From the NCBI RefSeq assembly GCF_001677475.2, contig NZ_CP015229.1: 64,000 nt of DNA; one strand, given 5' to 3'. Position numbers and translations under genes: made by a program. Of this stretch, positions 1,197-50,834 are shown piece after piece (the first letter of the stretch is position 1; every line of letters begins with the position of its first letter). This stretch comes from Escherichia coli. GTDB lineage: Bacteria; Pseudomonadota; Gammaproteobacteria; Enterobacterales; Enterobacteriaceae. Below the pieces are notes generated by a model that saw only the letters and a list, made by a program, of their open reading frames with translations, ran no database searches and had not been told where the DNA came from.

Positions 1197-2083
1197 TGGT
1201 TCGGCAAAATCTTCCAGAACGCCTCAATCAGCGGCTCATGAAGCCGCTTTTTTTGTACGCACACGCCCAGCTCAAACGGCGTTTTTTCATCACTGCGCTC
1301 TAAAATCATCACGCGGTTACGCACCGGTTCCGGGCTGTTTTCCAGCACCACTTCTGGCAACAAGGCCACGCCGCAGCCGAGCGCCACCATCGAAACCATC
1401 GCTTCATGCCCGCCAACCGTGGCGTAAATCATCGGGTTGCTGATTTTGTTGCGTCGGAACCACAGTTCAATGCGGCGGCGTACCGGTCCCTGATCGGCCA
1501 TGATAAACGGCACTGTAGACCAGTCGGGCTTTTCGACAGATACCTGATTACGCACCGGGCAGGGCAGCGCGGGAGCAATCAGCACCACCGCCAGATTCTC
1601 CAGCATCGAAAACGCCACTGCGCCCGGCAAGGTTTCCGGTTTCCCGGCAATCGCCAGATCCGCTTCGCCAGTGACCACCTTTTCCATCGCATCGGCCGCA
1701 TCACCGGTAGTTAGTTTGATCTCCACTGACGGGTGTTCCGCGCGGAAGCGGTCGAGAATCGGCGGCAGATGGCTGTAAGCGGCGGTCACCGAGCAGAAGA
1801 TATGAAGCTCGCCGGAGAGCGATGGCCCTTGCTGGTCGATGGTGTGGCGCAGTTGCTGATACTGCAACAGCGTTTGTTGGGCGAAAACACGCAGTTCTTC
1901 GCCCGCTTCCGTCAGCGTCACCGTGCGGTTATCGCGCACAAACAGCGGCTGACCAAGATCTTCTTCCAGGCGCTGAATCTGTCGTGAAAGCGTAGACGGG
2001 CTAACGTGCATCGCCCGCGCGCTGCGGCCAAAATGGCGGCTTTCCGCCAGATGCAGGAAGGTTTTCAGATCGCGTAAATCCAA
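1193..2083 (-). CDS. ilvY: LysR-family transcriptional activator of ilvC
   Basis: Translation contains [44 protein letters not shown] wHTH; track ORF is N-terminally over-extended, likely TTG start near 2083; divergent from ilvC. Confidence 0.85.
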
Positions 2084-28537: not shown

Positions 28538-30193
28538 TTAATCAGATTTAATCTGCGCGCGTGGTGGATATTTTTTCAGGATCTCCATATATGCGTGCAT
28601 TTCGGTCTGTAGCGGTACACCCATCGGAATATGGCGCACGCCGATAGAGTCTCTTTCCTGCGGATCGGTGTACAGGTTAAACACCGACGATCCCGCCGTT
28701 TGCATTACTGTGCCGGTGAACCCACCCTGATACCCGCTCTGGGTATAAGCGTAAGGTTGCTGAATCAGGACGTGATACTTGAACTCATCCATACGCACAG
28801 CAGCGAGTTTACCGTTGAGGAAGTAGTGCTCGGCCTTACGGTTAGACTGACCATTTGTTCCCAGGAAGAAAGAAGCCTGGTCCACACCATCGATAAATGT
28901 GGTTTTCGGCACTAAATTCGCCACTTTCGCTCCAGGATGCCCTGCCAGATCCAGCGCGGTAGGGAAGAGATCTGCCAGATCGACAATACCGTCAGATTTA
29001 CGCGGTTGGATCATGCCTTTCCAGTAAACGAAGGTTGGCACACGAACGCCGCCTTCCCATGTAGAACCTTTCGCACCGCGGAACGGGGTGCGACCGTGCG
29101 GCGGAACTTCGGCTTCCGGACCGTTATCAGAGGTGAACACAATCAGCGTGTTATCAAGCTGACCGTTTTTCTCCAGTGCTTTATACAGATTGGCGAAGAT
29201 TTCGTTCATCTCCACCATGCAGTCGCCGTAAGAGGTGCGCGCCGGAGAGCTACCCGCATATTTCGCATTTGGGTAGTTATCGAAGTGACAGCCGCGAGTG
29301 CCGTAGTAGAGGAAGAAAGGCTTATCGCTCTTCGCCATCTTGTCGAGGAACTTAACGCCATATTCCATCCAGCGTTGATCCAGGTCTTCCATATATTTCG
29401 GCGTAATGTCGGCAATGGCCTCCTGTTCACCGCCGCGCACGGCATGAACGTCATCTTTGCTGAATGGCAGTTTTTGGATGTATTCAGAACGATCCGGGCT
29501 CAGGGCGACTTCCGGGTTGACATGAACATCACGCCATTCGGTATACATATCGGACACCGAGTTAAAGCCGCGGAAATCATCAAAGCCAACGTTCTGCGGC
29601 TGCGACTCTTTGTTTTCCCCCATATGCCATTTCCCGATGGCCTGGGTGACGTAACCCTGATCGTGCAGCAGTTGCGGCAGCGTGGTTAACCCTTGCAGCC
29701 CGCCCGGTTGCCCGTACATTGGCGGCATCAGAATGCCGTGGTGGATGGAGTATTGTCCGGTGAGAATGGTGGCGCGGGTTGGGGAAGAGCTTGGTTGAGA
29801 ATACGCCGAAGTTAAAATCAGCCCCTGGCTGGCAACGGCGTCGATATCTGGTGTAGGGTTACCCACTGCCACGCCGCCGCCGTTAAAGCCGACGTCCATC
29901 CAGCCCACATCATCCAGCAGGAAGATAACCACATTGGGCTTCTTACCGGTTTTTTTCTCAAGTTCTGCCAGCTTGTGCTGGGTTTCTTTATCCTGCGCCG
30001 GATGCTGCATTACTGGCATCATGTTGTCGGCAATAGTGGTCGCCGGTTTAACCAGATACTGGTTTGGGTGATCGTATCCGGAAAAGCCTTTGCGTGCGGT
30101 GGCAGTTGACGGGGTATCTGCTGCGCTGGCCATGAGAGGAAGAGCGGCGGCGACAGCAACAACAAGAAGTTTGGGTGAAAACGAAAATTCCAT
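28538..30193 (-). CDS. aslA: Arylsulfatase-family periplasmic sulfatase
   Basis: 551-aa translation with signal peptide [24 protein letters not shown] and sulfatase core. Confidence 0.93.
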
Positions 30194-30607
30194 GCAAAAT
30201 GCTCCGGTTTCATGTCATCAAAATGATGACGTAATTAAGCATTGATAATTGAGATCCCTCTCCCTGACAGGATGATTACATAAATAATAGTGACAAAAAT
30301 AAATTATTTATTTATCCAGAAAATGCATTGGAAAATCAGGAGAGCGTTTTCAATCCTACCTCTGGCGCAGTTGATATGTAAGGCAGGTTTATTATATCGC
30401 GTTGATTATTGATGCTGTTTTTAGTTTTAACGGCAATTAATATATGTGTTATTAATTGAATAAATTTTATCATTCATAATAAGTATGTGTAGAATCAAGC
30501 TCAGGGTAAATATTCACTCAGGAAGTTATTACTCAGGAAGCAAAGAGGATTACAGAATTATCTCATAACAAGTGTTAAGGGATGTTATTTCCCGATTCTC
30601 TGTGGCA

Positions 30608-30824
30608 TAATAAACGAGTAGATGCTCATTCCATCTCTTATGTTCGCCTTAGTGCCTCATAAACTCCGGAATGACGCAGAGCCGTTTACGGTGCTTATCG
30701 TCCACTGACAGATGTCGCTTATGCCTCATCAGACACCATGGACACAACGTTGAGTGAAGCACCCACTTGTTGTCATACAGACCTGTTTTAACGCCTGCTC
30801 CGTAATAAGAGCAGGCGTTTTTTT
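30608..30824 (+). ncRNA. glmZ: GlmZ small regulatory RNA (GlmY/GlmZ cascade controlling glmS)
   Basis: Recognised sequence gtagatgctcattccatctcttatgttcgccttagtgcctcataaactccggaatgacgcagagcc... ending in terminator gcctgctccgtaataagagcaggcgttttttt; located between aslA and hemY; ends approximate. Confidence 0.85.
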
Positions 30825-30871
30825 ATGTATCAGAAAGGTCCCGGAGGTGCTTGCCTCCGGGTGAGAAAGAA

Positions 30872-32068
30872 CTACTGTGGCGGGTTGTTCTGCAACGTTA
30901 ACATCAAACCGTCGCGGCGCATCGCTGCAGCTTCTTCTGGTTTGTGCAGTCTGTCCAGCGCGTCGGCAAGCCATGCGTAATCGTAGGCGTCCGGACGTTG
31001 TTTCAGCGCTGCGCGGAAGGCGAGCGATGCTTCCTGCCATTCTCCGTGCTTCATCAGCGACTGACCCAGTGTGCTCCACAACAGCGGGCGATCGCCGACG
31101 TTTTTGATCTGTTGGCGCAGCACTTTTTCCAGCTGTTCCGGGTTATTGGTTTTCAGACGCGGGATCGGCAGCAGTAGGCGATCGTCATACTGGCGTTTCA
31201 GGCCGTCGATGATAATTTGCTGGGCAGTATCATGATCGTCACATTCAATAAGATGTTCCGCCATTGCCACCTGCAACGCTACCTGATGACGCGTTTTCCG
31301 GCTTTGGTTTTTCCACCAGTTACGCAAACCTTCGCTACCGTTATCGGCACGAGCCTGATCCATCAGGCCAATCCATGCCTGTTGTTCCAGCATTGCACGA
31401 TGTTCTTCATCACCAACATGGGCTTTCGCCATTGATGGGATGATATCCAGCAGCGAACTCCATGCCCCTGTGCGGATATACGCCTGTTCCGCCAGACGTA
31501 ATACTTCCGGATGGCGTGGCGTAACTTCCAGCAGCTTATCCACGCCGTGGCGTGCAGCGTGGTTTTCATTACGGGCCAGTTGCAGACGTACACGGGTGAT
31601 TTCTACCGGAATGGTGTCATTACCGGCCAGCTCCGCTGCGCGTTCCAGATGTTGGTTGGCGCGTGCTTCATCACCACGTTGTTGCGCGGCTTCGGCAGCC
31701 AGTAGATAGTTCACCACCGGTTGTTCAGCGTGATCGGCATTTTTCGCCATCAGCTTTTCAACTTGCTGATAATCGCCTTCCGCCAGTTTCAGCAGCGCCT
31801 GTTCGGTCTGCTTACGGGCACGGCGACGCTTACGTCCGACAAACCACCCACGGGTGTGCGCGCCAGTGCGGAAGATCCGCCGCAGTAGCCACTCAATGGC
31901 AAACAGCACTACCATCGCCAGAATCAAAATAATCGCCAGGCCCGTGACGCTGGTTTCGATATTGTAGTTGTCGGTCTGGATCAGCACATAACCCTGATGA
32001 CCGGCAATCATCGGGCCAACCACGATCCCCGCAATCAGCAACACAAAGAGCAATAACACTTTTAGCAT
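30872..32068 (-). CDS. hemY: Heme biosynthesis-associated TPR membrane protein HemY
   Basis: 398-aa translation MLKVLLLFVLLIAGIVVGPMIAGHQGYVLIQTDNYNIETS... Confidence 0.93.
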   Translation of the reverse strand: MLKVLLLFVLLIAGIVVGPMIAGHQGYVLIQTDNYNIETSVTGLAIILILAMVVLFAIEWLLRRIFRTGAHTRGWFVGRKRRRARKQTEQALLKLAEGDYQQVEKLMAKNADHAEQPVVNYLLAAEAAQQRGDEARANQHLERAAELAGNDTIPVEITRVRLQLARNENHAARHGVDKLLEVTPRHPEVLRLAEQAYIRTGAWSSLLDIIPSMAKAHVGDEEHRAMLEQQAWIGLMDQARADNGSEGLRNWWKNQSRKTRHQVALQVAMAEHLIECDDHDTAQQIIIDGLKRQYDDRLLLPIPRLKTNNPEQLEKVLRQQIKNVGDRPLLWSTLGQSLMKHGEWQEASLAFRAALKQRPDAYDYAWLADALDRLHKPEEAAAMRRDGLMLTLQNNPPQ

Positions 32069-44411: not shown

Positions 44412-45314
44412 TTACTTAGCGCACTTCTTCACATCAATATTCCAGTTAGCACCAGACGCAACCTGATGTTTCTGCGCGAAATTAGCCATATTCAGCGCCA
44501 CGGAAACATTCAATAAGCTGTTCAGATACACCATCGGCTGTCCTTCCGGCACATCGCCGAAGCTTGCGACATACGGCATTTTCCCTGCGTATTTTTGCTG
44601 GGAACCTTCGGAAATGGTCACACACAACGTGTCGTTGAGTTTGATTCCTGCCTGATTCAGCAACTCGTCGCTGATATTGCTCCAGACGTTGCCGTACTGA
44701 ATATCGAGAATCGGGATATTGCCCTTCACTTCACCTTTTGTTGCTTTTGCTTTCTGATAAGAAAGTTCGACAACTTTTGCAGGAAGCTCTGGCCCCACCT
44801 GTTCGAACGTAATCGCCCCGGAAGCCAGACGCGCCCCTGTGTAGGCATATACATCGCGACCATGGAAGGTATATGACTTTTCGGAACCTTTCAGGCGGTT
44901 GGTTTTTTCATCGATTTGCCGGACGCTCTCAATACCCAGCGATTCCGCCACCAAAGTGAGCGTACCGTTATCCGGTGAAACGAAGTATTGACCGTTTTTG
45001 GTTTTCAGCACTACCGATTTACGGTCAGTGCCTACGCCCGGATCGACCACACTGACAAATACCGAACCTTGCGGCCAGTAGCTGGCTGTCTGATACAGGC
45101 GGTAAGCGCCTTCCCAGATGTTATACGGTGGAATTTCGTGTGTTAAATCAAATATTTTAAGATTATGGTCAACACCGAATGCGACCCCTTTCATCGCCGA
45201 GACGGCACCATCTTTCAGGCTAAAATCAGTTTGTAAAATCAAAGCGTTATCCGCATAAGCGGATGATGATCCCAGACACGTTAATAAAAATAACGTTGCG
45301 AGCGTTTTTTTCAT
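44412..45314 (-). CDS. Secreted DUF62 / SAM hydroxide adenosyltransferase-fold (fluorinase-chlorinase superfamily) protein
   Basis: 300-aa translation; N-terminal signal peptide MKKTLATLFLLTCLGSSSAYA; blocks LILQTDFSLKDGAVSAMKGVAFGV...DLTHEIPPYNIWEGA, FVSPDNGTL, YGNVWSNI, FGDVPEGQPMVYLNS align with conserved blocks of the family as I remember them from SalL-type proteins. Confidence 0.7.
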   Translation of the reverse strand: MKKTLATLFLLTCLGSSSAYADNALILQTDFSLKDGAVSAMKGVAFGVDHNLKIFDLTHEIPPYNIWEGAYRLYQTASYWPQGSVFVSVVDPGVGTDRKSVVLKTKNGQYFVSPDNGTLTLVAESLGIESVRQIDEKTNRLKGSEKSYTFHGRDVYAYTGARLASGAITFEQVGPELPAKVVELSYQKAKATKGEVKGNIPILDIQYGNVWSNISDELLNQAGIKLNDTLCVTISEGSQQKYAGKMPYVASFGDVPEGQPMVYLNSLLNVSVALNMANFAQKHQVASGANWNIDVKKCAK

Positions 45315-45396
45315 TTTTGTTTCCCTTCATTTATCTGATAATTTTCCAGCTGTGTAGCCAGCCCCAGTTTGTCTGGCCTCCTCGAGTGTACAATGC

Positions 45397-46161
45397 TTAA
45401 CCTTTCCGCTCGACGGAAATCATGGTAACAAAAGGATAGCGTTGCCACGGGATTGCCCCGCCTTTCATATACATATGTGAAATCGTGCCATCAAGATAAA
45501 GCAGCTGCTCAACGTTCAGTTTCGCTTTGGCATAACAGGCAAAATCATAAAAATTTGTCGCCTGCTGGCTCAACAAAAACACGGCGCTCCCTTGTTTATT
45601 AATCCCAACACCGTTACGAATTTTACGTGAGGCGACGTTGGGATGAATACGCGGATTAATTACGCCGTTTTCCATCAACATTGGCCCTGACTGCACCGCA
45701 AACTGAATCTCTTTACTGGTTTTGAAGGCATCCAGACGAACGATGCCGACTTTATCTCCCGCGACATAAAACACGCCGCCAGGACGGATAAAGAAATTCC
45801 CTTCACCTGAAGCGAGATTTAACGCCACCTTCTGCTGACCGTTTTCGATGTACAAACCGAGCGGCGCATAGCTTTCATCATAGATGCCGCCGTTCATCGC
45901 CATCTGCACCTGACCCTGACTATTCATATCCGCCAGCAGAGCATGTAACGTTCCCCACGCTTCGGCATTGGCTTTTTGCCAGTACATTTTCACCCGCTCT
46001 GTTTGAGGATTAACGGTATACGCCTGTACGGTCAGCGCCGGATCTGAGAGTGCGCAATCATCAGCGGCAACAGCAAACAAGGGAAGTAAGGTGAGGGCGA
46101 GAAAAATCCGTTTGAGATTCAAGGTGATCATTCCTTTACCAATGAGTAGCCGATGCGCCAT
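45397..46161 (-). CDS. yigE: DUF2233-family (phosphodiester glycosidase-like) secreted protein
   Basis: 254-aa translation with signal-like N-terminus ...LKRIFLALTLLPLFAVAA. Confidence 0.85.
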   Translation of the reverse strand: MAHRLLIGKGMITLNLKRIFLALTLLPLFAVAADDCALSDPALTVQAYTVNPQTERVKMYWQKANAEAWGTLHALLADMNSQGQVQMAMNGGIYDESYAPLGLYIENGQQKVALNLASGEGNFFIRPGGVFYVAGDKVGIVRLDAFKTSKEIQFAVQSGPMLMENGVINPRIHPNVASRKIRNGVGINKQGSAVFLLSQQATNFYDFACYAKAKLNVEQLLYLDGTISHMYMKGGAIPWQRYPFVTMISVERKG

Positions 46162-46377
46162 TATAGGTCCTGGATGTGGGATTTTTTTATCCTGTTAGCG
46201 ACCTTGACGAGTACCAAAAAGCGCGAAGTTCAACTATTGTTCTGTGGTGTTCTGTTGCGTGTTGACGGCAAAATTTTGCTGGCGTAACATGCGCGCACGA
46301 TCACTCTAAGAGGACATTCGCCTTGGACACACCCAGTAGATACTGGCTCACTATCCTGTCATCCAGGATCAACTCCT

Positions 46378-46405
46378 AAGGCTATCCCTTTTTGCTGATA
46401 GCCTT
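46378..46405 (+). promoter_or_regulatory. Stem-loop in the long corA 5' leader
   Basis: aaggctatc / gatagcctt 9-bp stem with 10-nt loop, about 125 nt upstream of the corA start. Confidence 0.35.
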
Positions 46406-46530
46406 AGCGGTTGTCAGCGACCTCAATTTTTCCCGTCGCGCTGAGTCAGGCTGTTTAATGGTCTGAAACCCAATTTGTTTCTGTGTGCCCACCGAACTGT
46501 CCGATATTTTAAGCATTGGGAGTCCCGGTC

Positions 46531-47481
46531 ATGCTGAGCGCATTTCAACTGGAAAATAACCGACTGACCCGGCTGGAAGTCGAAGAGTCACAACCCCTTG
46601 TAAATGCAGTATGGATTGATCTTGTCGAACCGGACGACGACGAGCGACTGCGCGTACAATCTGAACTTGGTCAGAGCCTGGCAACCCGCCCGGAACTGGA
46701 AGACATCGAAGCATCGGCACGTTTCTTTGAAGACGATGACGGCCTGCATATTCACTCCTTCTTCTTCTTTGAAGATGCGGAAGATCACGCCGGTAACTCC
46801 ACTGTGGCATTTACCATCCGTGATGGTCGTCTGTTTACTCTGCGTGAGCGTGAACTGCCTGCATTCCGTCTGTATCGTATGCGTGCCCGTAGCCAGTCGA
46901 TGGTAGACGGTAATGCCTACGAGCTGCTGCTGGATCTGTTCGAAACCAAAATCGAACAGTTGGCAGATGAAATTGAAAATATCTATAGCGACCTGGAGCA
47001 GTTGAGCCGGGTGATTATGGAAGGGCATCAGGGCGATGAGTACGACGAGGCGCTCTCCACGCTGGCGGAACTGGAAGATATCGGCTGGAAAGTTCGCCTG
47101 TGTCTGATGGATACCCAGCGCGCGCTCAACTTCCTGGTACGTAAAGCACGCTTACCGGGTGGGCAACTGGAGCAGGCGCGTGAAATCCTGCGAGATATCG
47201 AATCCCTGCTGCCGCATAACGAATCCCTGTTCCAGAAGGTGAACTTCCTGATGCAGGCGGCGATGGGCTTTATCAACATCGAGCAGAACCGCATCATCAA
47301 AATCTTCTCGGTGGTATCCGTCGTGTTCCTGCCGCCGACGCTGGTCGCTTCCAGCTATGGGATGAACTTTGAGTTTATGCCGGAACTGAAGTGGAGTTTC
47401 GGCTACCCTGGCGCGATTATCTTTATGATCCTCGCGGGCCTGGCACCGTATCTGTACTTTAAGCGCAAGAACTGGTTGTAA
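46531..47481 (+). CDS. corA: Magnesium/cobalt transport protein CorA
   Basis: Translation [31 protein letters not shown]..., 316 aa, C-terminal [11 protein letters not shown] motif. Confidence 0.95.
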
Positions 47482-47490
47482 AAATAAGGC

Positions 47491-47515
47491 GGTGGCTTAG
47501 CCTGGCTAAGCCACC
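47491..47515. terminator. Hairpin between convergent corA and yigF
   Basis: ggtggcttag / ctaagccacc inverted repeat with 5-nt loop. Confidence 0.5.
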
Positions 47516-47521
47516 TGTTAT

Positions 47522-47902
47522 TCAAAGGCTCCAGGTATTTAACCCTTTTACCTCTTTCTCATAAAACCATTTGTTCGTGTTAACAGCAACATAGGCTGCT
47601 ACGGCAATTCCCAGAATGTTAACGCCAATTAGTGCACCAACAAATAGAGATAGAATGCCAAGTAATAGAACTATAATTGCTTTTTTCCATAATCCTAGAA
47701 CAAATAAATAGATCCAGGAACAGAAGAAAGCAATGAAATTCATTTGAATAGTTAATCGTTGTCTTACTTTTAATGTTTTAAATGCTGCTTTATATTCTGG
47801 TGTTGCCCCCCAGAATCCAGGAAAGCCATGTTGATCATAAAAATTAAATCGGTATTTCCATTTTTCACTTAATGAACCATCGTTCATATATTCCTTACTC
47901 AT
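47522..47902 (-). CDS. yigF: Small inner-membrane protein of unknown function
   Basis: Translation MSKEYMNDGSLSEKWKYRFNFYDQHGFPGFWGATPEYKAAFK... with two TM segments; AT-rich. Confidence 0.8.
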   Translation of the reverse strand: MSKEYMNDGSLSEKWKYRFNFYDQHGFPGFWGATPEYKAAFKTLKVRQRLTIQMNFIAFFCSWIYLFVLGLWKKAIIVLLLGILSLFVGALIGVNILGIAVAAYVAVNTNKWFYEKEVKGLNTWSL

Positions 47903-47915
47903 AAATACACCATAA

Positions 47916-48296
47916 CTATTGTTTTGATGAATCAGTAGGTGCAAGCATTAGCATACTGAAAGTGGAAAAATAACAAATCAAAAAAATCATCGAACCATTG
48001 CCTGAACAATCAAAATGTTCGGCTATCATTGTGATGATAGAGATGATATATACTGCTAATGTACCAAAAACATAAGTTTTTATATATATGAAACCACTAT
48101 CACGGAGTCGTTGGCAATTCATGTTGATGACGAGATAATGGAGTGCGATGGTAGAGACAATAACAAGAAAACCTGCGTCCCCATCGTTAAAAAAGATAAT
48201 AAGAAAGGCAAAAATGAAATTTATTAAAATAAATGAAAATATATAACGACGTCTGGAAATCTTACCGTTAGATGTTGGGATAAATATACGCAACAT
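47916..48296 (-). CDS. yigG: Small inner-membrane protein of unknown function; start uncertain (could be 48332 or 48356)
   Basis: Translation ...[36 protein letters not shown]...; AT-rich. Confidence 0.75.
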
Positions 48297-48390
48297 AAAT
48301 TTTACATCCTTGTGTGAGTCTCCTGTCAGCATGGCAATATGCCCACTCTCATGCAAGAGTCGGCATATTTTTTCAGAATATATTTATTTT

Positions 48391-49281
48391 TTATTTGGAC
48401 GTTCTACGCTGCGTATAAATCGCATCCATCACAAAAATTGCCAGCGCCACCCAAATAAAGGCGAAAGTCACCATCTTATCGGCACCCGGTTTTTCACCAT
48501 AAAACGTCACAGCCAGCAGGAACATCAGTGTCGGGCCAATGTACTGGAAAAAGCCTAACGTTGAGAGACGCAGGCGTGTCGCAGCTGCAGTAAAACACAA
48601 CAGCGGTACGGTAGTGACAATACCGGCAGCGATCAGCAGTAAATTCAGCGATATCGGGTTTTGCCCCATATGGCTGGTTGCGCTGTCGGCAATAGCAAAC
48701 AGGTAAATCGCCGCCACGGGCAGCAACCACATGGTTTCGATTAACATGCCGGTTTGCGCTTCAACGGCAATCTTCTTTCGTACCAGGCCGTAGAAGGCAA
48801 AACTAAACGCCAGCCCCAGCGCGATGATCGGCAGTGAACCAAAAGTCCACAACTGAACCAACACGCCACATATCGCCAGAATCACCGCCAGCCATTGCAT
48901 CCGGCGGAATCGCTCGCCGAGGAAAATCATCCCCAGCACAATGTTCACCAGCGGATTAATAAAGTAACCAAGGCTTGCTTCCAGCATATGGTGATTGTTC
49001 ACCGCCCAGATAAACAGTAGCCAGTTGCCACCAATCAGCACGGCAGAGACTGCCAGCATAAAAATTTTCTGTGGCGTCCGAATCAGCGTTTTTAAATAGG
49101 ACCACTGGCGGCAAATGCTCATCAGCACCACCATAAAGAAAAACGACCAGATCACGCGATGCGTCAGGATCTCATCGGCGGGCACGTAGTAAATCAGCTT
49201 GAAGTACGCTGGCGCAATACCCCAAATAAAATAAGCGGCAAGAGCGAGTAATACGCCCTGCCGCGTTTGTTTTGCATCCAT
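48391..49281 (-). CDS. rarD: DMT-superfamily transporter RarD
   Basis: 296-aa 10-TM translation MDAKQTRQGVLLALAAYFIWGIAPAYFKLIYYVPADEILTHRVIWSFFFM... Confidence 0.9.
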   Translation of the reverse strand: MDAKQTRQGVLLALAAYFIWGIAPAYFKLIYYVPADEILTHRVIWSFFFMVVLMSICRQWSYLKTLIRTPQKIFMLAVSAVLIGGNWLLFIWAVNNHHMLEASLGYFINPLVNIVLGMIFLGERFRRMQWLAVILAICGVLVQLWTFGSLPIIALGLAFSFAFYGLVRKKIAVEAQTGMLIETMWLLPVAAIYLFAIADSATSHMGQNPISLNLLLIAAGIVTTVPLLCFTAAATRLRLSTLGFFQYIGPTLMFLLAVTFYGEKPGADKMVTFAFIWVALAIFVMDAIYTQRRTSK

Positions 49282-49332
49282 CGGGAATACTCATTTTTAA
49301 TTGGTAACAGCAGTTTACCTGCTTTTACGTTA

Positions 49333-49800
49333 TCAACCTACCATATAGGTGGCGGTGGCACTGGCAATATAAAGCTGTTCTTCATTGTGTAATTCAACGC
49401 GGGCGACGGCGACTTTATTGCCTGCACGCAACAGGCTACTGGTAGCAGTAAAACGCTCGCCCCTACCTGGGCGCAGATAATCAACGCGAAGATCAATGGT
49501 CCCCATCCGCGATAGCCGCTGGCGTAGTTCATCTTCACTGATGGTTTCGTGGCGGGTTAAGGTACTTCCCACGCACACCAGACCTGCGGCGACATCCAGC
49601 GCCGACGCAATGACCCCGCCGTGCAAAATGCTTTGCGCCCAGTTGCCCACCATCATCGGCTGATTTTTAAAGGCCAGCTGTGCGAACTCTTTTTCGTAAC
49701 GCTCCAGTTCCATCCCCAATGCGCGGTTAAATGGCATGTGATAAACAAACATCTCACCCACTAATTTCAGGGCTTGTTCAGCGGTCAGTACGGCAGACAT
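49333..49800 (-). CDS. yigI: Hotdog-fold thioesterase (PaaI-like)
   Basis: Translation [37 protein letters not shown]... Confidence 0.85.
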
Positions 49801-49964
49801 ATCATCCTTACACTTCATTGGTTAATGAAATGTTGATTTTATGCTTCTTTGTTGTTGGTTTCTACTTTAGGAAGGGATAACTAACGGCTATGGAGTTAAG
49901 TATGTAAAATAGCCCGCAGAAAAATATTCACCTTATCAATAATTCGTTACGGAGAACACGACCG

Positions 49965-50834
49965 ATGCGGACTCTGCAGGGCTGGTTGTTGCCGGTGTTT
50001 ATGTTGCCTATGGCAGTATATGCACAAGAGGCAACGGTGAAAGAGGTGCATGACGCGCCAGCGGTGCGTGGCAGTATTATCGCCAATATGCTGCAGGAGC
50101 ATGACAATCCGTTCACGCTCTATCCTTATGACACTAACTACCTCATCTACACACAAACCAGCGATCTGAATAAAGAAGCGATTGCCAGTTACGACTGGGC
50201 GGAAAATGCGCGTAAGGATGAAGTAAAGTTTCAGTTGAGCCTGGCATTTCCGCTGTGGCGTGGGATTTTAGGCCCGAACTCGGTATTGGGTGCGTCTTAT
50301 ACGCAAAAATCCTGGTGGCAACTGTCCAATAGCGAAGAGTCTTCACCGTTTCGTGAAACCAACTACGAACCGCAATTGTTCCTCGGTTTTGCCACCGATT
50401 ACCGTTTTGCAGGTTGGACGCTGCGCGATGTGGAGATGGGGTATAACCACGACTCTAACGGGCGTTCAGACCCGACCTCCCGCAGCTGGAACCGCCTTTA
50501 TACTCGCCTGATGGCAGAAAACGGTAACTGGCTGGTAGAAGTGAAGCCGTGGTATGTGGTGGGTAATACTGACGATAACCCGGATATCACCAAATATATG
50601 GGTTACTACCAGCTTAAAATCGGCTATCACCTCGGTGATGCGGTATTGAGTGCGAAAGGACAGTACAACTGGAACACGGGCTACGGCGGCGCGGAGTTAG
50701 GCTTAAGTTACCCGATCACCAAACATGTGCGCCTTTATACTCAGGTTTACAGCGGCTATGGCGAATCGCTCATCGACTATAACTTCAACCAGACCCGTGT
50801 CGGTGTGGGGGTTATGCTAAACGATTTGTTTTGA
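49965..50834 (+). CDS. pldA: Outer membrane phospholipase A
   Basis: 289-aa translation with signal peptide and C-terminal ...NQTRVGVGVMLNDLF beta-barrel end. Confidence 0.93.
   Translation: MRTLQGWLLPVFMLPMAVYAQEATVKEVHDAPAVRGSIIANMLQEHDNPFTLYPYDTNYLIYTQTSDLNKEAIASYDWAENARKDEVKFQLSLAFPLWRGILGPNSVLGASYTQKSWWQLSNSEESSPFRETNYEPQLFLGFATDYRFAGWTLRDVEMGYNHDSNGRSDPTSRSWNRLYTRLMAENGNWLVEVKPWYVVGNTDDNPDITKYMGYYQLKIGYHLGDAVLSAKGQYNWNTGYGGAELGLSYPITKHVRLYTQVYSGYGESLIDYNFNQTRVGVGVMLNDLF

Follow-up and report, generated by a model that had tools for sequence, protein, structure and literature searches.

We analysed the gap between corA and rarD in a 64 000 nt stretch of an Escherichia coli genome (contig NZ_CP015229.1), referred to here as the window. 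The gap holds two small genes, yigF and yigG. The gene order is corA (+), yigF (-), yigG (-) and rarD (-), and past rarD come yigI, pldA and recQ. A six-frame listing shows that two minus-strand open reading frames (ORFs) fill positions 47522-48296 exactly, the ATG of yigG starting at 48296 and the stop codon of yigF ending at 47522. A megablast search of 5426 complete E. coli genomes found a locus of 99.5% identity in which RefSeq gives the names yigF and yigG to the genes that separate corA from rarD, and this places the window on the E. coli chromosome. The original prediction for this DNA had described two small hydrophobic proteins in tandem between corA and rarD; its coordinates are exact and the RefSeq names agree with it. 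We report here that the corA-rarD gap is a slot in which strains and species carry alternative cassettes, and this is what our analysis adds to known work.

The spacer between the yigG stop codon and the yigF start codon is only 13 nt, so that the two genes form one operon, and wherever the pair occurs yigG precedes yigF. E. coli genomes of this slot type match the stretch at 97-99.5%, the best being strain MEI003 (99.5%), and the K-12-derived strains among the matches listed do so at about 97%.

Alternative cassettes between corA and rarD

The slot was surveyed in the 5426 complete E. coli genomes using junction-specific counts, and yigG-yigF was scored as present where at least 80% of 47400-48450 was covered. 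The pair is present in 2960 genomes (55%) and absent from 45%, so it is far from the universal syntenic presence that the original prediction had named as evidence against its own reading. Five states of the slot cover 5349 of the 5426 genomes. In about 2394 genomes yigG-yigF is of the type found in the window and in K-12, and in about 566 it is of the type found in sequence type 131 (ST131), with about 81% DNA identity. A further 1430 genomes (26%) carry the O157 type, an 845 bp segment encoding a 99-residue membrane protein and, on the opposite strand, a 128-codon ORF that is unannotated in RefSeq. In 931 genomes (about 17%) yigF and most of yigG are deleted and the 5' end of yigG is kept together with the region upstream of it. 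Finally, 28 genomes have a 136 bp 'empty' site, a deletion derivative of the O157 type. The empty site of strain SCU-111 was considered as a possible virgin site and this was rejected, as it too derives by deletion from the 845 bp module.

BLASTN comparison with four other E. coli slot types shows that similarity to the window ends exactly after the corA stop codon (47481) and returns at 48402, within the last codons of rarD. This delimits a variable cassette of 920 bp.

The 128-codon ORF of the O157-type module encodes a member of the YigG family (hhalign probability 96%, E 3.9e-9). In O157:H7 strain SS17 (locus L001) this ORF lies at 1607-1993 (-), between a corA' fragment and rarD, and the annotated gene for the 99-residue membrane protein lies at 2209-2508. 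The 99-residue protein was compared with YigF and a relationship was rejected. The two-gene module is also kept in a Salmonella enterica assembly.

There is a further module, made up of a DUF3289 (PF11692) and a DUF943 (PF06092) gene, on the corA-proximal side of the gap in 2627 of the E. coli genomes (48%), where it is followed by a 147 bp duplicate of the corA 3' end. This module co-occurs with the O157 type and with the deleted type and, by subtraction, with about 266 of the yigG-yigF genomes. A BL21-type strain has the module together with a yigG gene that contains an internal stop codon and an intact yigF. The window holds no DUF3289 or DUF943 gene and corA is followed directly by yigF. 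DUF3289 has been described as a colicin M-like toxin and candidate type VI effector that is neutralised by DUF943 (PMC11148199). The module is like yigG-yigF in occupying the same gap, in its GC content (0.33) and in having no mobility genes, but its proteins share no sequence relationship with YigF or YigG, and it forms a separate unit with its own duplicated corA end. All of the cargo found in the slot is AT-rich (GC 0.31-0.34).

The original prediction had proposed an ancient horizontal acquisition. The data agree that this is foreign, AT-rich accessory DNA; however, they show a segregating polymorphism with alternative cassettes and deletions rather than a single fixed acquisition. A patchy distribution of this sort is one of the marks of H-NS-silenced foreign DNA. 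A keyword search of the literature, which was not exhaustive, found no description of the corA-rarD slot as polymorphic or as a hotspot. We regard the slot polymorphism and the unannotated YigG relative as useful additions rather than as a new kind of system.

Base composition and H-NS binding

The whole window has a GC content of 0.523, whereas that of 47522-48296 is 0.332. No other 775 bp segment of the 64 kb has a lower value (mean 0.523, sd 0.036), and it lies about 5 sd under the mean. At third codon positions the GC content of yigF (0.27) and yigG (0.31) falls well short of that in the 51 other window ORFs of at least 100 codons (0.583±0.055), and the codon-adaptation index calculated from the window's own genes is 0.50 and 0.51, respectively, against 0.665±0.057. 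The GC content of the flanking genes is unremarkable (corA, 0.53; rarD, 0.51). The two calculations therefore bear out the AT-richness that had been predicted, and in AT content and codon usage, too, yigF-yigG has the character of H-NS-silenced foreign DNA. The only other stretch of the window with a GC content below 0.42 is 29851-31000, which holds the GlmZ small RNA (30618-30824; Rfam, 218 bits).

Much of this is already known for K-12. The yigF-yigG region of MG1655 is a Figure 1 example of a 'promoter island', and in Table 1 of the same study two gene-transfer surveys mark it as foreign and every chromatin immunoprecipitation set compiled shows H-NS bound there (PMC3661553). A small extended protein occupancy domain (EPOD) covers yigF, yigG and rarD and served to illustrate a silenced operon whose function is unknown (PMC8282354, Fig. 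7C). Additionally, a promoter internal to yigG is one of six H-NS-repressed intragenic promoters and requires an AT-tract and residue R451 of sigma-70 (PMC7229825). The window strain is not K-12 itself, but there is no essential difference from K-12 yigF (b3817) and yigG (b3818): the genes, their order, their lengths and their flanks are the same, and the published intragenic promoter fragment is present in the window. We place a putative extended -10 element, TGGTACATT, at 48066-48058 within this promoter. Taken together, the published data show that H-NS coats the cassette in K-12, where it stays largely silent during growth in the laboratory, and the same presumably holds for the window strain. 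The silencing that was predicted from base composition was thus correct and had already been published; foreign origin, AT-richness and H-NS binding of yigF-yigG are known, and we add nothing there.

Age and mosaicism of the alleles

Synonymous divergence (dS) between the window allele and the ST131 allele is approximately 1.32 for yigF and 0.66 for yigG, in comparison with 0.081 for corA and 0.086 for rarD. Window YigF is 88% identical to its orthologue in Escherichia whittamii, 83% identical to those of Salmonella Senftenberg and Superficieibacter and only 70% identical to that of ST131, although CorA is 100% identical within E. coli. YigG shows a different pattern, with 78% identity within E. 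coli and 56% to Salmonella. There is also a database protein (P0107) that is a mosaic of both YigG alleles. The mosaic protein and the discordant YigG pattern point to recombination inside the cassette. Excess divergence is also seen in Kosakonia, where YigF is 60% and YigG 65% identical in comparison with 99% for CorA and 93% for RarD. These comparisons suggest that the yigG-yigF alleles are very old, and such alleles would have persisted through repeated import or some form of balancing selection.

Distribution outside E. coli

In a scan of one genome per GTDB species, YigF orthologues of at least 46% identity were found in Escherichia, Superficieibacter, Atlantibacter and two Kosakonia species only. 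The Escherichia species are E. coli, sp. E1V33, E. whittamii and E. albertii; the E. albertii contig stops at yigF and only the corA flank is visible. In every such locus that spans the slot, a yigG homologue directly precedes yigF within the rarD-corA gap. The low GC content of the cassette is kept across genera (0.33-0.37; Kosakonia, 0.45).

Salmonella Senftenberg has yigG-yigF between corA and rarD. A second Salmonella enterica assembly, whose flanks are 99.3% identical to those of Senftenberg, has the O157-type module instead, and its two proteins are 49% and 58% identical to those of E. coli. Both module types are thus segregating in E. coli and in S. enterica.

More distant YigF relatives (33-45% identity) are found in Pseudomonas, Pantoea, Budvicia, Leminorella and Luteibacter as single genes in unrelated contexts. 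In E. whittamii there is a DUF943 gene between yigF and corA (locus L013, 5487-5975), and a tblastn scan detected no DUF3289 gene there. This lone DUF943 gene looks like an orphan immunity gene.

Proposed exchange of cassettes without mobility genes

No integrase, transposase or recombinase ORF, no tRNA gene near the slot and no insertion-type flanking repeats were found; the only repeats are short and of the kind expected by chance. The cassette resembles classical integrase-borne genomic islands in its low GC content, its strain-variable presence and the duplication of the 3' end of a flanking gene. It differs from them in having no integrase, tRNA, attachment repeats or transposase, in being smaller than 1 kb and in having boundaries that coincide with gene ends.

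The structures of the junctions suggest another route. Fragments of the 3' ends of corA and rarD (corA' and rarD') sit between tandem modules in other strains and genera, and 147 bp corA 3' duplicates adjoin inserted modules in other E. coli strains. In Atlantibacter, including strain E76, the order is rarD - yigG - yigF - corA' - rarD' - DUF3289 - DUF943 - corA, which reads as two complete slots in tandem. We propose that cassettes pass between strains and species by homologous recombination, for which the conserved genes corA and rarD would serve as arms. In some cases a single crossover would integrate a circularised rarD'-cassette-corA' fragment and leave duplicated ends of both genes. The arrangement in Atlantibacter matches the expected product of this route and the 147 bp corA' of E. 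coli fits it too. A double crossover, in corA and in rarD, would replace the cassette cleanly, in keeping with breaks in similarity that lie at gene ends. The slot is in this respect a clean case in which to study how small silenced cassettes may move between species in the absence of mobility genes.

Matches to plasmid and phage records were considered as evidence for mobility and were rejected. Two of the eight records were read in context and are a mislabelled piece of chromosome and an unverified host contig; the remainder, judged by size or annotation, comprise 'plasmids' as large as a chromosome, records in which rarD is present too and another tiny contig. The 141 kb 'plasmid 4' of Salmonella Senftenberg (NZ_LN868946.1) carries xerC, uvrD, corA, rarD and recQ and is a chromosome fragment. 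A contig binned as 'uncultured Alistipes sp.' shows 97-100% protein identity to E. coli (tblastn) and is misbinned. The label of 'Enterobacter sp. E76' (CP042499.1) looks wrong, as both CorA and RarD match the Atlantibacter subterranea proteins at 100% identity.

YigF and YigG are conserved membrane proteins

YigF matches Pfam DUF2628 (PF10947) with 40.7 bits against a cut-off of 23 (E 3.4e-10), residues 17-117 aligning to positions 9-91 of the 93 in the profile. In the confident AlphaFold2 model (pLDDT 86.7) the first 50 or so residues are helical and hydrophobic helices come after them; this conserved, largely helical N-terminal part is taken to be soluble. YigF shares the invariant motif KW..RF.F and the motif LGLWKK with its relatives in Pseudomonas, Pantoea and Budvicia. 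Unlike yigF, the DUF2628 genes found beyond the Enterobacteriaceae listed above are single genes of near-genomic GC content that have no YigG partner and do not lie between corA and rarD. YigF is 126 residues long in every enterobacterial lineage in which the ORF was read out.

YigG matches NCBIfam NF008474 (PRK11371, the YigG equivalog) with 251.9 bits against a cut-off of 217, covering positions 13-138 of the 138 in the profile. The AlphaFold2 model shows four long helices that form a four-helix bundle (pLDDT 75.7). Proteins of the DUF805 family have a four-helix membrane topology with N-terminal GRxSR and RLxDxG motifs. YigG may resemble them: its model has four helices, and its sequence contains a G(R/K)ISRxxY stretch near the N-terminus as well as an RLRDSG loop; the stretches GKISRRRY and CQRLRDSG are conserved across the YigG family and align to the DUF805 profile. 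However, YigG itself scores below the threshold for DUF805 (PF05656; 17.3 bits, E 0.0067, cut-off 25.7). When ten relatives of YigG were scanned for DUF805, four scored 14-17 bits, four had no match and the distant protein P0173 alone passed (27.0 bits). The family is also tiny: a profile of the YigG alleles found only 25 relatives (cluster representatives) among 1.84 billion representative proteins. On these profile scores we would describe YigG as a very narrow and divergent branch that resembles DUF805. P0173 lies on a plasmid-like contig (Logan SRR26015881, 2273-4171) just downstream of hha, a gene of the hns family and pmp3, and parA is nearby. Such a context would mean that the family belongs to a mobile, AT-rich gene pool carrying its own silencer.

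There is an alternative start for yigG, an ATG at 48332, which would give a protein of 138 residues. The start at 48296 is favoured because homologues in other genera begin at or near the 126-residue start. The ratio dN/dS between alleles and genera (Nei-Gojobori method) is 0.13-0.15 for yigF and 0.16-0.22 for yigG, and the probability that a 126-codon frame stays open by chance at the base composition of 47522-48296 is about 1e-4 per frame. In summary, both genes are real and encode small inner-membrane proteins under purifying selection. The two proteins were compared with one another and rejected as relatives (hhalign probability 0.2%). Scans of YigF and YigG against Pfam, NCBIfam, PHROGs and PADLOC revealed no toxin, defence or phage signature, with no match to PADLOC defence models at E ≤ 0.1 and none in PHROGs. 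Structure searches with the two proteins gave nothing informative, and a literature search on the function of DUF2628 and DUF805 gave nothing relevant and nothing mechanistic.

Possible functions

YigG and YigF are strictly linked over deep divergence, which suggests that they act together, probably in the inner membrane. Taken together, the data make it quite likely that yigG-yigF is an operon on an accessory, silenced, AT-rich cassette in the corA-rarD gap, that the cassette is exchanged through its flanks and that the two proteins act together in the inner membrane. With regard to what they do there, our preferred guess, which is tentative and falls short of an even chance, is that they contribute conditionally, as accessory factors, to envelope or surface properties and do not form a toxin-antitoxin unit. 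In Salmonella, deletion of yigG led to less attachment to plastic and to produce and less growth under chlorine stress, and yigG is missing from serovar Enteritidis (PMC3579871).

Several points weigh against this interpretation. The Salmonella phenotypes were modest and only partly complemented (PMC3579871). H-NS binding was measured in K-12 and we extend it to the window strain. Recombination in the flanks rests on junction structures and not on breakpoints mapped inside corA or rarD. The dS values are near saturation and come from a simple method applied to AT-rich sequence, and their ratios are approximate. Frequent loss (absence from 45% of E. coli genomes and the stop codon in BL21-type yigG) could mean that there is little current benefit. 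Finally, very old alleles at a fixed locus fit immunity or defence better than a general envelope role.

This last point bears on another possibility, namely that YigG, alone or together with YigF, acts as an orphan membrane protein with a protective role, giving immunity to an envelope-acting toxin that other bacteria deliver or excluding phage, its types being held under frequency-dependent selection. Three YigG-family types and null states coexist in E. coli and two types are also found in Salmonella, dS between the alleles exceeds that of the flanks roughly 8-16-fold, and selection within types is purifying. The same gap holds a colicin M-like toxin and its membrane immunity protein (DUF3289/DUF943) in 48% of E. 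coli genomes and a lone DUF943 gene beside yigF in E. whittamii. Small membrane proteins with three or four helices, orphans included, are proven immunity factors against colicin M-like toxins (PMC5277000). Among them, PmiA and BmiA are like YigG in size (about 130 residues), in their three or four membrane helices, in their poor conservation and in occurring as orphans, but yigG-yigF has no linked toxin, and the comparison is an analogy of size and topology, drawn from description and not from sequence. No toxin gene or remnant is seen upstream of yigG in any lineage examined, where the neighbour is always rarD; yigG-yigF and DUF3289-DUF943 are separate units with their own corA' and rarD' ends, each found without the other; the genes for the YigF relatives of Pseudomonas, Pantoea and Budvicia stand alone, in unrelated surroundings that hold no toxin; and PADLOC and PHROGs yielded no matches. 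On balance we consider a protective role rather unlikely. A broader form of the idea is a little less likely again. Here the gap would be a long-lived 'choice' locus of E. coli, Salmonella and their relatives, in which alternative YigG-family modules (yigG-yigF, or a YigG-like gene with the 99-residue partner) protect against envelope-targeting toxins or phages, such as lipid II-degrading, colicin M-like effectors of the DUF3289 kind, and in which trans-species polymorphism is maintained by frequency-dependent selection.

The cassette could also be a functionless leftover of foreign DNA, silenced by H-NS and tolerated at a harmless convergent junction while its ORFs decay. It is missing from 45% of E. 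coli genomes through independent deletions, yigG is a pseudogene in the BL21-type strain and appears frameshifted near its 3' end in Atlantibacter strain E76, many truncated protein clusters are found among the search matches and the genes are silent in K-12. We nevertheless judge decay very unlikely: dN/dS is 0.13-0.22 across divergences at which synonymous sites are saturated, the 126-codon yigF frame is intact in every enterobacterial lineage read out despite the small chance of this for each frame, the YigF and YigG motifs are conserved and deletion has phenotypes in Salmonella. The original prediction had also noted that small membrane protein pairs can be toxin or immunity-like factors, and in its simplest form this would make the pair a toxin-antitoxin or toxin-immunity unit in which one protein depolarises the membrane and the other neutralises it. 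Two small hydrophobic proteins encoded 13 nt apart in one operon, always inherited together on AT-rich and silenced DNA, would suit such a unit. However, proteins of 126 residues with several helices, in or near the widespread housekeeping-type families DUF2628 and DUF805, are not short pore-forming peptides, and YigF relatives stand alone in many genomes. Neither the BL21-type strain, with its stop codon in yigG and intact yigF, nor the joint loss in the yigF-deleted slot type suggests addiction, and a yigG clone of the ASKA library was recovered alive in an IPTG-induced screen (PMC10299036). There is no database match to toxin families, and no toxin gene adjoins the pair in the lineages examined, in which it is bordered by rarD and by corA or a corA' fragment. 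The sole link to a toxin is circumstantial, namely the published DUF3289/DUF943 pair in the same gap of other strains. Our ranking therefore runs from the envelope or surface role, through the orphan protective role and decaying cargo, to the self-contained toxin-antitoxin pair, which we regard as the most improbable of all.

The preferred envelope role and its rivals concern two uncharacterised families of membrane proteins, on which the slot gives a handle, as natural null, type-1, type-2 and type-3 strains exist.

Other features of the region

The features of the locus are listed in Table 1.

Table 1. Features of the corA-rarD region in window coordinates
Feature	Position	Strand	Basis
corA, conserved flank, likely recombination arm	46516..47481	+	Pfam CorA E 1.7e-56; RefSeq start at 46531
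Variable cassette filling the convergent corA/rarD junction, including the last rarD codons	47482..48401		BLASTN breakpoints; GC 0.34
Perfect 12+12 hairpin with T-rich tails on both strands	47491..47515		Terminator scan of both strands; inverted repeat I7
yigF, 126 aa, DUF2628 membrane protein	47522..47902	-	ORF; Pfam PF10947; RefSeq name
Spacer, 13 nt, yigG stop to yigF start	47903..47915	-	Sequence reading
yigG, 126 aa, four-helix inner-membrane protein, divergent, DUF805-like	47916..48296	-	ORF; NCBIfam NF008474
Counterpart of the published 'yigG 1.2' fragment	47996..48145	-	Primer and synthetic-fragment sequences of PMC7229825, matched to the window by eye
AT-rich region upstream of yigG, downstream of rarD	48297..48390	-	Sequence
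rarD, conserved flank, likely recombination arm	48391..49281	-	Pfam EamA

The perfect hairpin just downstream of corA is likely to act as a two-way terminator for corA (+) and yigF (-). There is an imperfect hairpin (inverted repeat I6) at 48336-48369, in the AT-rich region upstream of yigG, and no run of T residues follows it. A promoter scan found no strict sigma-70 match on the minus strand of this region. Its rarD-proximal part recurs in E. coli genomes that have no yigF-yigG, where the final 84 query bases match, and the yigF-deleted slot type (locus L004) retains the sequence corresponding to window 48209-48400. Rfam models detected no RNA element over 46000-50000.

On the other side of corA, RefSeq genomes have an 18-codon ORF, ysgD (YsgD/CorL family), about 150 nt upstream of corA, which is expected at approximately 46320-46380 of the window. 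The uvrD-corA interval of the window (44412-46161) contains a gene of the SAM hydrolase/halogenase family (44412-45314) beside yigE (45397-46161), with a dip in GC content to 0.42-0.49. In SCU-111 the SAM hydrolase gene adjoins corA directly, and in ST131 and AR0349 yigE is found there instead. The other side of corA may thus be variable too.

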